From Escherichia coli (GTDB taxonomy: Bacteria; Pseudomonadota; Gammaproteobacteria; Enterobacterales; Enterobacteriaceae): a stretch of 64,000 nucleotides of DNA. Of the stretch, positions 17,925-20,900 are shown piece by piece (positions within the stretch are counted from its first letter, which is position 1; each line of letters starts with the position of its first letter). The translations under genes and the position numbers were made by a program. A model generated the notes under the pieces. It did no database searches, had not been told where the DNA came from, and saw only the letters and a list, made by a program, of their open reading frames with translations. The DNA lies in NCBI RefSeq assembly GCF_965641715.1, contig NZ_OZ282453.1; one strand, written 5' to 3'.

Positions 17925-20900
17925 TTACATGCCGACAATAGTACCGGTGTTATCAGTTTCGTTTGCTTCTAACGCTAAACCGTAGAAGCCACCGAGAACA
18001 GCGTCTTTACCGCTGTTCGTAACCTTATTTGCCGATACGCCAGCGACACCATAACTCAGCATATTGAGGTAGTTATAAATATTACCGGTGGTTTTAACCC
18101 CCAGAGAATAATCACCTACAATATTTCCACGGTTATTAATGTCATTCACGGCATTGATCGCGATAGTTTGCCCCAACATATTACTGTTGCTGTTGTTGGT
18201 AACATACTTCTGCGTATCAATAGTCAGCGCGGTTCCCGCCACGATGTCTTTAAAGTTCTCAACACCGTTCTGGGCATTAATGGTCAGCGCGTTATCCGCC
18301 GCGATGGCATTACGGTTATACAGCGTGCCTTTCAGAACATTGAAATGCACATCTCCTTTACCGCTGATCCAACCATAGTTAGTGACGCTGCTATCAACGC
18401 TCAGATCCAGATTTTTGTCAGACGCAATCACGCCCGTGGCGGTATTGTCTTCCAGGCGACCATCGCTGGCGTTGTTCAACGACGCCGCATAAACGTCGAG
18501 ATTACCGGCGCTGTACGTGGTGGCATAGTTGTTGTAGAACGTCCCTGCCGCACGGATGATGGCATCAGCCCCACTGCTGAGGAGCGCGCGGGTATTATCC
18601 AGCGTTCCTTTGGACAGCAGATTAAGCGGACCATTTTCAGCGATGATGCTGCTGTTATTGTTGTAGACGTTCTGAGCAGAAAGCGTGACACCTTCTTTAC
18701 CTACGATGCCGCCAACGTTGTCGGTAATTCCAAACAGCGCGCCGTTATTACGCAGGAAGTTATTCCCGTCGCGGTTTTCGAGGTTGCCGCCAGCGTTAAT
18801 AACCAGCTTTTTATTCGCCGCGATCAGCGCAGTGTTGTTGTAAATCGTCGATTTAGCATCGACAGAAACATTCTCACCGGCAATCAAACCATAGGCGTTG
18901 TCTACAATGTTCGCCGTCAGAGTCACGTCGCCCGTTTCAGAGGTCAGCGAACCCTTATAGCTGTCGTAGTTGCCCGTCAGTGCCAGCGTGACATCGCCAT
19001 AACCACGAATTTCACCGTTATCGTTGTTCAGATTGTTGCCTTTAACAGACAACACGCCGTTCAACGCATGCAGATTACCGCGGTTGTTACCCACGTTACC
19101 CTTCGAATCGATAATCAGATCGCCTGTCGCTTCGATGGTCGCGTTATTGTTCGCCACGCTATTTGCCGACAATGCGATATCCCCATACCCTACCATATAG
19201 AGATAGTTATACAGGTTGCCTTTGGTCGTCACGTTCAAGTCAGCGTCACTGACAATGTTGCCACGGTTGTTGATATCGTTAACCGCGTTAATAACGATAT
19301 TCTGCCCCACCATATTGCTGTTGGAGTTGTTGGTCACATGGCGATTGGTGTTCATCGTCAGGTCGCCGCCAGCAGAAATATCCTTCCAGTTTTCAATACC
19401 GTTCAGCGCTGCAATGTCCAGCCCCTTTTCAGCCGCAATAGTATTACGGTTGTACAGGTTGCCGTTATTCACCGTGACATCAACATCGCCTTTACCGCTG
19501 ATCCAGCCGTAGTTGGTAAGGCTATTCACCACTTCCAGTGACAGGTTTTTATCAGATGCTATGAACCCGGTCGCATTGTTATCGATCATCGTACCGCTGC
19601 TGCTGTTTTGCAGCGTGGTCGCGTCGATATCCAGGTTGCCCGCACTCCAGGTGGTAGCGTAGTTGTTGTAATACGTTCCGCCAACCTGAATAGATGCATC
19701 CGCCCCGCTGGTGACCAGAGCACGCGTGTTGTCGAACGTGTTCTGCGCCTGCAGAGTCAGAGGACCATCCTCAGCGATAAGACGGCTGTTGTTGTTATAG
19801 ATGTTCTGCCCGGAAAGCTCGATGCCTTCCTTGCCGACCATTCCACCAGTTTGCTGAGGCATGCCGAAGTACAGACCATAAGCATTACCGAAGTTATTGC
19901 CATCGCGGTTTTCGATACTGCCGCGCGCATTTATCTTCAGTTTTTTGCTGGCCACGATCAGCGCTGTGTTGTTATTGACGCCAGACATCGACTCCATCGT
20001 GATGTTCTGCCCCATCATGAAGCCGCCGTGGTTATCCACGGAGTTGGCTAACAGGGAGATATCACCCTCTTCAGAGCTGATCACGCCAATATTATTGGTC
20101 AGGCTGCCGCCAACGGCGACTTCAATACCCTGCTTACCGCTGATCCCCCCGGTATCGTTACGCAGAGAGCTTCCCTTGATAATCACTTTGCTGTTGGACA
20201 GAATTTTGCCCGCATAGTCGTCGATCGTGCTGTAACTTGACAGGGAGACGTTGCCATTAGACGCAATCTGTCCGCCGTTGTTATTGATGTTGTTCGCACC
20301 AATTTCTACGCCGGTATCTGCAATAATGCCCAGAGAGTCAGAACTGCCGGTATCGGCGGTTTTGGTTGAACCATTATTTACGCTACCTGCCGCGCCAATA
20401 ACGATATGCCCGGTGGGCGAACGGATCAGACCTTTGTTGTTATCCACATTACCGTTACTGATAATGGCGATATCGCCGGTGGTCTGGATATCACCGTTGT
20501 TGTTATTCAGCGCAGCGGATTCAAGACCCACATAGCCACCGCGAATCTGACCATTGCTGTTGTTGAGCGTTCCGGTTTTCAGCGCCACGAGCCCCGCTTC
20601 AATCCCGACAGAACTCCCTTTACCAGAGTTAATCAGCGTGGCGTTATTGGTATCAACCGCCAGCATTCCTGCAGCCGCAAGCTTGCCGTTAGTATTGTCA
20701 ATCGTACCGCTGTTAACGTAGATATCGCCCATCGTAGAGATGTTACCCGCACGGGTATTCACGATAGTATTCTTGTTGGTATTAAGCGAGATAGTGCCTA
20801 CAGATGTCACCGTACCGGTGGTGTTATCCAGAGTACCATTTGTTGTCAGGTTGATCGTGCTTGCAGACTGAATCTGGGCGTTACTGTTTAACAGGTTACC

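Follow-up and report, generated by a model that had tools for sequence, protein, structure and literature searches.

OtpAB of Escherichia coli O157:H7 is a genuine two-partner secretion (TPS) system (PMC5422565; bioRxiv 10.1101/2020.04.13.038984); the pair is listed as ECs1282-1283, after Choi, Dawson and Bernstein 2007, and PMC5422565 attributes to Choi et al. 2007 and Choi and Bernstein 2009 the experimental evidence for its TpsB-dependent outer-membrane secretion. The otpA gene itself was already described. Another TpsA protein that bears on it is EtpA of ETEC (PDB 8vba), whose four C-terminal repeat modules cooperate in glycan binding (PMC11100705). Like OtpA, EtpA carries its TPS domain at the N terminus, ahead of a long right-handed β-helix (predicted, for OtpA) built in part of large tandem modules, four in EtpA and two of about 380 aa in OtpA. 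However, the two proteins are only about 14% identical, outside the TPS domain no homology can be detected between their sequences, and the OtpA locus, unlike that of EtpA, has no adjacent EtpC-type glycosyltransferase gene, its order being tpsA-tpsB and then a fatty-acid/polyketide-like cluster. Of the traits that mark an EtpA-type adhesin, the large tandem C-terminal β-helix modules were found here, whereas homology to the EtpA repeats and an EtpC-like partner were not. FHA/FhaB of Bordetella resembles OtpA in its homologous TPS domain (1rwr, E 9.5e-36), β-helical passenger and Fil_haemagg / fil_hemag_20aa repeats, although the FHA repeats are short coils of about 19-20 aa, while the duplication in OtpA is of a higher order and takes in a block of about 19 coils at once. 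FHA is also far larger than OtpA, which lacks matches to other domains.

The otpA-type gene and its locus

Within the window (the whole stretch of E. coli DNA that was analysed, 64,000 nt), the gene under study (Table 1) has 99.0% DNA identity to the O157:H7 coding sequence at full length and over the same 3813-nt span, and its nearest allele (99.3%) belongs to strain DSM 103246. The two loci also share their neighbours, with a divergently oriented fimbrial chaperone-usher operon upstream and, directly downstream, a ShlB/FhaC-type tpsB, the tpsA-tpsB pair being kept in every related locus examined; O157:H7 strains each have a single otpA. Judged by sequence and gene order, the gene is the otpA orthologue, the same gene in another E. 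coli strain, and the identity of the locus as otpAB rests on its description beside the loc6 fimbrial operon (bioRxiv 10.1101/2020.04.13.038984). Besides the TPS domain, the protein has a Fil_haemagg match in Pfam; it also matches fil_hemag_20aa repeats in the profile search and TIGR01901 (E 7.9e-22), and phmmer matched it to the solved TPS domains of FHA and HpmA with E values from 1e-36 to 1e-33. With a TPS domain, an adjacent TpsB bearing POTRA domains and a predicted β-helical passenger, the protein is classed as a TpsA exoprotein of type Vb (two-partner) secretion.

Table 1. Coordinates of the otpA-type gene, its partner, its repeat units and associated features in the window
Feature	Position	Strand	Details
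otpA-type tpsA gene, 1270 aa	17925..21737	-	GTG start, stop 17925-17927; ORF list, Pfam, O157:H7 match
TPS secretion domain, aa 42-282	20892..21614	-	Pfam PF05860, E 1.9e-41
Repeat unit copy 1, aa ~466-864	19146..20342	-	Core aa 521-862 = 19152-20177
Repeat unit copy 2, aa 865-1242	18012..19145	-	Core aa 899-1240 = 18018-19043
C-terminal tail, aa 1243-1270 (GKDAVLGG...NTGTIVGM)	17928..18011	-	Common to tail of single-copy relatives
otpB-type tpsB transporter gene, 539 aa	16217..17836	-	Pfam POTRA_2, POTRA_3, ShlB (E 9.6e-70)
Longest exact in-register match between copies, 17 nt TGGATCAGCGGTAAAGG	19489..19505; partner 18355-18371	-	Encodes WISGKG
P0007 breakpoint interval, 5-nt shared GGGGC in copy 1	19702..19706; partner 18568-18572	-	
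P0008 breakpoint, 13-nt microhomology TCGAAAACCGCGA in copy 1	19903..19915; partner in copy 2 18769..18781	-	
Short α-helical excursion, copy 1 aa 613-624	19866..19901	-	DSSP on AlphaFold2 model, residues 354-365
Equivalent α-helix, copy 2 aa 991-998	18744-18767	-	DSSP, model residues 732-739, offset 378
Antisense shadow ORF, 457 aa, TTG start	18168..19541	+	Codon register of otpA; not taken to be a gene
Further antisense ORFs	19608-20051; 20406-20891		ORF list

Geometry and age of the tandem duplication

The C-terminal half of otpA contains an in-frame, ungapped tandem duplication with an offset of 1134 nt, or 378 aa. Self-comparison of positions 17001-22500 by blastn gave a single strong off-diagonal match at this offset (18014-18839 against 19148-19973; 66.5% identity over 830 nt, E 1.15e-63), and a repeat search turned up seeds spaced by the same 1134 nt. 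Explicit diagonal counts were used for the protein, for which blastp against itself returned the trivial self-match only; the offset-378 diagonal was unique, with 261 identities (29% of the diagonal), against a mean of 8.5% (sd 1.3, max 13.5%) at the remaining offsets. Tandem Repeats Finder, with a longest period of 500, reported no repeat at this scale, the copies being too diverged. The blastn match and the solitary diagonal bear out the earlier note in its central claim of a true internal duplication of about 1.1 kb in tpsA. Its span of 18020-20210 was correctly located, although the units together with their eroded junction are slightly wider (18012-20342), and its figure of about 70% identity applies to the best 100-aa stretch only: identity is about 65% over the best-conserved 220 aa, and the ungapped core of 342 residues has 58.9% identity in protein (BLASTP) and 62.9% in DNA. 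Compared with copy 1 and with the 399-aa unit of the Enterobacter type, copy 2 is short of one 21-aa coil, with the gap at aa 898/899, and at offset 399 the similarity reaches back to about aa 480. Because the junction at aa ~850-925 is strongly diverged, the exact original unit boundaries are not recoverable.

It could be argued that the generic ~20-aa periodicity of a Fil_haemagg β-helix explains the apparent duplication, as enrichment over the 8.7% background is indeed seen at 20-21, 41 and 61-62 aa. These coil offsets reach just 11-14% identity, however, against 29% at offset 378 and 59% over the ungapped core, no other long offset rises above 13.5%, and the DNA match has an E value of 1e-63; the dot-plot comparison that had been proposed as a check already refutes periodicity as the explanation, to which we give practically no credence. 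Scarcely more credible is a real overlapping gene at 18168-19541 on the plus strand to which the duplication would belong. In its favor are its length and a longest antisense stop-free stretch of 521 codons, which is longer than the average from a synonymous shuffle of the whole gene (P = 0.002). That null is unfair, because 10 of the 16 sense codons that form antisense stops are concentrated among codons 1-283, towards the 5' end, where GC is lower; when the shuffle was restricted to the compositionally matching part, aa 284-1270, the stretch was not significant (P = 0.07). The antisense ORFs lie in exact codon register with the sense gene, and sense TTA/CTA/TCA codons set their limits; stops in this register require one of these three, which make up just 16 of the 1270 otpA codons. 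Stops interrupt the equivalent frame in copy 1, RefSeq has no annotation there, no antisense ORF reached the Pfam gathering score, and the 457-aa ORF had no NCBIfam match. The periodicity of the antisense ORFs, earlier offered as added evidence for the duplication, carries no weight of its own, since the ORFs are present but their periodicity merely mirrors the duplicated DNA.

What did not hold was the description of the duplication as recent. Synonymous sites between copy 1 and copy 2 are saturated (pS 0.73), with dN of 0.32 and dN/dS of at most 0.11, and the 201 identical residues use the same codon at 91 sites where 85.7 are expected by chance, so that no recent gene conversion has taken place between the copies. 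The dN between paralogous copies (0.32-0.42) exceeds that between E. coli and Enterobacter orthologues (0.20-0.30). In all two-copy homologues the first copy is nearer to copy 1 of the query and the second to copy 2, and in neighbor-joining trees of both half-blocks, which are short, lack bootstrap and show long-branch behavior in the N-terminal part of copy 2, each copy forms its own clade across Escherichia, Enterobacter and Aeromonas. The copies are offset by 399-401 aa in the Enterobacter and Aeromonas forms and in relative P0005, and by 378 aa in the Escherichia type. Among the matches listed, the majority of relatives are single-copy proteins of 847-912 aa, whose C-terminal tail matches the query tail that follows copy 2. 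Given the properties of these trees, the placement of relative P0044 is ambiguous, and it may be either a pre-duplication or a collapsed form.

Independent duplications in E. coli and Enterobacter were also considered, and were rejected by the unit trees and the reciprocal identities.

The preferred reading is that an ancient β-helix module duplication of single origin, made in frame in the C-terminal half of the OtpA family, has been kept under purifying selection in several genera and only rarely lost, as in ordinary repeat-protein evolution. To this explanation as a whole we assign a probability of roughly 0.87.

Length stability and one-unit deletions

The comparison of tpsA length among strains that the earlier note recommended revealed no hypervariability: the 3813-nt span was identical in 379 of the 381 closed E. 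coli genomes, among which neither expanded alleles nor, with both hybrid genes as queries, collapsed alleles were found. No three-copy form was seen among the 120 matches listed or in the representative search. Three relatives (P0007, P0008 and P0035), however, are copy 1/copy 2 hybrids of 892-893 aa, the first two found in E. coli assemblies with different breakpoints and the last in a relative. For P0007, 422 of 451 informative sites fit one switch from copy 1 to copy 2 at aa 677-679; for P0008, 436 of 451 fit a switch at aa 608-612, within the 13-nt shared run; and in P0035 the switch falls at about aa 757-770. The junctions of P0007 and P0008 were checked in DNA, where both genes are exactly 2679 nt long (3813 minus 1134) and occupy the same gene neighborhood, as exact one-unit deletions. 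Such collapsed alleles are rare, with five contigs that come from short-read or metagenome assemblies only (Logan, a third-party NCBI assembly and ENA).

That provenance, together with their absence from the closed genomes, would be expected if the collapsed alleles were assembly artefacts and natural length variation did not exist. Repeat collapse in assembly, however, is not known to skip unique sequence, and here an assembler would have had to skip 1134 nt of it between copies that are 63% identical, joining them in shared runs of 5 and 13 nt. P0007 and P0008 were each read from two assemblies (L002 and L003; L004 and L005) with identical sequence, the same otpB and GCV_T disruptions occur in both P0008 samples, and the breakpoints differ between alleles, yet all are exactly in register, which makes an artefact improbable. 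At the other extreme, the repeat might be a recent, VNTR-like contingency locus that keeps generating length or antigenic variants. A tandem arrangement in frame suits such a locus, and some 892-aa collapsed alleles do exist. Efficient RecA recombination in E. coli generally requires roughly 20-40 bp of identity, and the longest exact run shared by the otpA copies is 17 nt; the copies are just 63% identical in DNA with pS of 0.73, share codons without excess and are orthologous across genera, and no copy-number polymorphism, collapsed or three-copy, was found in the 381 closed genomes. The locus is not a contingency locus or VNTR by these measures, and such a reading is very improbable. Of the variation that had been anticipated, length change is partly supported, in the form of rare in-register deletions in the three hybrids, whereas antigenic variation finds no support in a dN/dS of at most 0.11 and a length fixed in nearly all closed genomes.

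The concern that the repeat is prone to assembly collapse is also unfounded. The k-mer sizes of short-read assemblers exceed 17 nt, and because the longest exact in-register match is shorter than these, the otpA repeat poses no assembly hazard. The outcome is mainly corrective: the duplication is old and selectively maintained, neither recent nor unstable, and the natural 892-aa chimeras could be used as ready-made length variants for testing the role of the module.

Proposed history, role of the second module and linked genes

Under the preferred reading of an ancient, maintained duplication, some 399 aa of an ancestral protein of about 892 aa, or roughly 19 of its 21-aa coils, would have been duplicated, yielding about 1291 aa, before the Escherichia, Enterobacter and Aeromonas alleles diverged. 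One 21-aa coil would later have dropped out where copy 2 begins in the Escherichia-type lineage, giving the 378-aa offset and the protein of 1270 aa, and both copies would have been held by purifying selection and not homogenised by gene conversion. Rare in-register misalignment of the diverged copies may delete a whole unit at short microhomology and leave a chimeric 892-aa protein, and out-of-register deletions may account for relatives of 1231, 1205 and 1129 aa.

It is well known that β-helical secreted proteins can gain longer stalks and multivalent binding through large internal repeats. The AlphaFold2 model (pLDDT 95.5) is a continuous β-helix, with EtpA as its closest solved structure, and in the model copy 2 extends the right-handed helix, probably by about 18 coils or, at the β-helix rise of 4.8 Å per coil, about 9 nm. 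Copy 2 also appears to repeat the short extra-helical α-helix and conserved Asn- and aromatic-rich surface motifs. The likely benefit is that the stalk is lengthened, that a ligand-binding surface is present twice, or both, and the EtpA repeats, which bind ligand jointly, offer a model for keeping a second module. A more specific proposal, which we hold to be tentative and rather unlikely, is that the duplicated module is the functional ligand- or cargo-binding part of OtpA and that the number of copies adjusts a function linked with the neighboring lipid/polyketide genes; one-copy and two-copy OtpA would then be functionally distinct variants. Because OtpAB heads the same gene run in all seven loci described below, OtpA could be a surface scaffold or partner of the lipid product of the cluster. 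This tight and wide linkage to lipid/polyketide biosynthesis and export genes is the more promising lead, and might suggest the function of OtpA.

The run was found in seven of the seven loci with readable downstream genes, from Escherichia, Enterobacter, Aeromonas, Klebsiella, Winslowiella/Pantoea, Acinetobacter and relative P0035, while the upstream side varies. Where the sequence reaches, it comprises acpS, a ketoreductase, a dehydratase, an ACP, a GCV_T-like protein and ketosynthases, and in E. coli it goes on into ABC-transporter and LolA-like export genes.

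Identity of the gene and geometry of the repeat

The label tpsA given to this gene in the earlier note is correct, since the protein carries an N-terminal TPS secretion domain together with Fil_haemagg repeats matched by Pfam, its N-terminus matches the FHA and HpmA secretion domains of solved structure (E about 1e-35), and a ShlB/FhaC-type transporter gene adjoins it (table below). The gene is the already known otpA, found in 381 of 5426 complete E. coli genomes, one copy each at 95-99% identity, among them O157:H7 and O55:H7; in O157:H7 its neighbours are those of the window, with a divergent chaperone-usher fimbrial operon upstream and tpsB followed by fatty-acid/polyketide-type genes downstream. 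The window locus fits the published description of otpAB (ECs1282-1283) as adjoining the loc6 fimbrial locus (bioRxiv 10.1101/2020.04.13.038984), the otpAB locus is part of O-island 47 (PMC8565820), and OtpA appears in a TPS review as a genuine TpsA whose function is given as unknown (PMC5422565). A single one of the 381 matches is a plasmid rather than a chromosomal record.

Features of the otpA region (nucleotide positions in the window, or residues of OtpA where marked aa)
Feature	Position	Strand	Basis or remark
otpA-type tpsA ORF, 1270 aa	17925-21737	-	ORF list; contains the whole duplication
TPS secretion domain, N-terminal	aa 42-282	-	Pfam PF05860, E 1.9e-41
Copy 1	about 19146-20342	-	inferred unit
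Copy 2	18012-19145	-	inferred unit
ShlB/FhaC-type transporter with POTRA domains, 539 aa	16217-17836	-	Pfam; directly downstream of otpA
207-aa ORF, head of the fimbrial operon	23128-23751	+	RefSeq: hypothetical

Self-blastn of 17001-22500 gave a single strong off-diagonal alignment (18014-18839 with 19148-19973; 66.5% identity over 830 nt, E 1.15e-63) at an offset of exactly 1134 nt, or 378 aa, and the seeds of a repeat search were likewise spaced 1134 nt. Along the offset-378 protein diagonal there are 261 identities (29%), compared with a mean of 8.5% (sd 1.3, maximum 13.5%) at other long offsets and with 14% at the 20-21-aa coil periodicity, for which the shuffled background is 8.7%. The self-similarity is therefore more than a generic periodicity of about 20 aa, and the internal tandem duplication proposed from the sequence is real. 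The figure of about 70% identity proposed with it holds for the best 100 residues only; the best 220 are about 65% identical, and the ungapped core (aa 521-862 versus aa 899-1240) has 58.9% protein and 62.9% DNA identity.

The antisense ORFs do show the same periodicity, as had been pointed out, though this only reflects the duplication as it appears on the opposite strand. Of four plus-strand ORFs, three, among them one of 457 aa (18168-19541), lie in the exact otpA codon register, in which stops correspond to sense TTA, CTA or TCA, present at only 16 of the 1270 codons. We reject them as genes and regard them as shadow ORFs, because the longest antisense open stretch is unremarkable in a composition-matched synonymous shuffle (P = 0.07), none of the three scanned reached a Pfam gathering score, the 457-aa ORF has no NCBIfam match, and RefSeq annotates nothing at their positions. 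Ten of the 16 codons fall in the 5' part of otpA that encodes the signal peptide and TPS domain (20892-21737, versus 17925-20891), and GC, about 0.50 in the repeat region, declines in the direction of the 5' end to about 0.43.

Age and origin of the duplication

Third codon positions of the two copies are only 40% identical, and no exact in-register match between them exceeds 17 nt. By the Nei-Gojobori method synonymous sites are saturated (pS 0.73) and dN is 0.32, so that dN/dS between the copies is at most about 0.11. An identical codon is used at 91 of the 201 residues common to both copies, versus 85.7 predicted under independent codon choice, and thus no recent gene-conversion tracts are visible over these residues. 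Enterobacter and Aeromonas homologues of 1288-1301 aa have the same duplication at an offset of 398-401 aa; in all two-copy proteins the first copy is nearer to copy 1 of the query and the second to copy 2, and neighbour-joining (NJ) trees, built separately for the N-terminal half and the C-terminal half of the repeat unit, separate all copy-1 sequences from all copy-2 sequences, each set forming a single cross-genus clade. In DNA, dN is higher between paralogous copies (0.32-0.42) than between E. coli and Enterobacter orthologues (0.20-0.30); in the latter comparison the TPS domain evolves more slowly (dN 0.11). The saturated synonymous sites and the homologue comparisons thus contradict the recent origin first proposed, and point to one duplication older than the spread of the Escherichia, Enterobacter and Aeromonas two-copy alleles.

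Single-copy proteins of 847-912 aa are most of the relatives among the matches listed, and their C-terminal tail matches the query tail after copy 2. Adding 399 to 892 gives 1291 aa, in agreement with the Enterobacter-type forms and with P0005, a two-copy homologue with an offset of about 399 aa; aligned to these, the E. coli protein is shorter at aa 898/899 by exactly 21 aa, the length of one coil. Between-copy similarity in the 399-offset proteins reaches back to about aa 480, and the same N-terminal stretch of the query aligns at offset 399, not 378. From these alignments we infer that a 19-coil segment would have been duplicated first, and that the Escherichia-type lineage would then have lost one coil from copy 2.

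Hybrid alleles and length variation

Two E. coli chimeras, P0007 and P0008, are each 892 aa long (1270 minus 378), and their genes, each lacking exactly 1134 nt relative to the window otpA, stand in the normal otpA neighbourhood, each allele being read from two assemblies. P0007 tracks the query to aa 676 and resumes at aa 1055, the switch lying within a shared 5-nt GGGGC, while P0008 switches at aa 608/987, within the shared 13-nt run TCGAAAACCGCGA; a single copy 1-to-copy 2 switch fits 422 of the 451 copy-discriminating DNA sites in the former and 436 of 451 in the latter. P0035, an 893-aa relative (80% identical), is copy-1-like to about aa 757 and copy-2-like beyond, and in the NJ trees it is nested among the copy-1 sequences when the N-terminal block is used and among the copy-2 sequences when the C-terminal block is. 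With 37% of DNA positions differing between the copies, in-register deletion in a two-copy gene is the only origin that the sequences of these 892-893-aa hybrids allow. All three come from short-read or metagenome assemblies only, and assembly collapse, named in the earlier note as a common effect of such repeats, is implausible as their source, because an assembler would have to pass over 1134 unique nt on the strength of a 5-13-nt match.

The repeat has therefore acted as a recombination substrate, as had been suggested, in so far as deletion has occurred; such deletion is rare, without sign of programmed or frequent variation. None of the 381 closed E. coli genomes with otpA carries a one-unit-deleted allele and 379 have the full span, so that a comparison of otpA length among strains reveals no hypervariability. 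The single low-coverage record among the matches listed, closed strain SCU-316 (NZ_CP054371.1), retains a 596-nt remnant of the otpA 3' end, on the copy-2 and tail side. Family members of 1231, 1205 and 1129 aa have out-of-register deletions inside the repeated region, and no three-copy form was seen among the homologue matches listed or in the representative search. The repeat is not a contingency locus, and it presents no hazard to assembly.

The P0007 allele is mosaic, being 95.7% identical to the window otpA left of the breakpoint and 100% right of it (L002, one of its assemblies, 6001-8679 versus window 17925-21737), with scattered copy-2-like or novel sites shortly ahead of the breakpoint, which suggests that an allelic recombination or conversion patch accompanied the deletion. 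In the P0008 lineage otpB is split (378 + 152 aa), as is the GCV_T-like gene (L004 5466-7085 and 9135-10294; the same genes in L005), and an Enterobacter contig, L007, has similar splits in tpsB and its GCV_T-like gene (11961-13579 and 15625-16785); the otpA locus seems to be undergoing decay in certain lineages.

Predicted structure and gene neighbourhood

An AlphaFold2 model of aa 260-1270, with 34 homologues in the alignment (mean pLDDT 95.5), is all-beta with the short-strand periodicity typical of a solenoid, and two short helical segments (model residues 354-365 and 732-739) lie at corresponding positions of the two copies, 378 residues apart. As a beta-helix rises about 4.8 Å per coil, the second unit, of about 18 coils, would add roughly 9 nm. 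Both copies have strongly conserved Asn- and aromatic-rich motifs in common. The closest example of a large internal module duplication is EtpA, whose four C-terminal repeat modules jointly bind blood-group A glycans (PMC11100705), and since these modules act together, such multivalent binding is a plausible model for retention of the second OtpA module. The OtpA feature is of the same kind; TpsA and autotransporter beta-helices with large internal module duplications are already on record, and the otpA case is real but ordinary.

The tpsA-tpsB pair heads the same downstream gene string in every related locus with a readable downstream side, in E. coli, Enterobacter, Aeromonas, Klebsiella, Winslowiella/Pantoea, Acinetobacter and the P0035 relative (window about 1408-21737, minus strand, compared with L006, L008, L009, L010, L011, L012 and L013). 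Where the fetched stretch reaches that far, the short P0035 contig holding the first genes only, the order is acpS (holo-ACP synthase), SDR ketoreductase, FabA/ApeI-like dehydratase, ACP, GCV_T-like aminomethyltransferase, an 852-aa double ketosynthase and a ketosynthase of about 405 aa; the E. coli string goes on with an ABC transporter, a LolA-like protein, a malonyl-ACP transferase (malonyltransferase) and YcdU. Upstream neighbours are different in each locus, and this constant downstream string with a differing upstream side suggests a mobile module that would tie the TPS pair functionally to a lipid/polyketide pathway. The string may deserve more attention than the duplication itself.

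Between the divergent otpA and fimbrial operon, the 1.4-kb intergenic region 21738-23127 has a GC content of 0.32-0.36 versus about 0.50 in the flanking genes; being so AT-rich, it looks horizontally acquired and is possibly an H-NS-type regulatory region. The 207-aa ORF that follows has no Pfam match, and it is kept beside fimbrial genes in other E. coli contigs.
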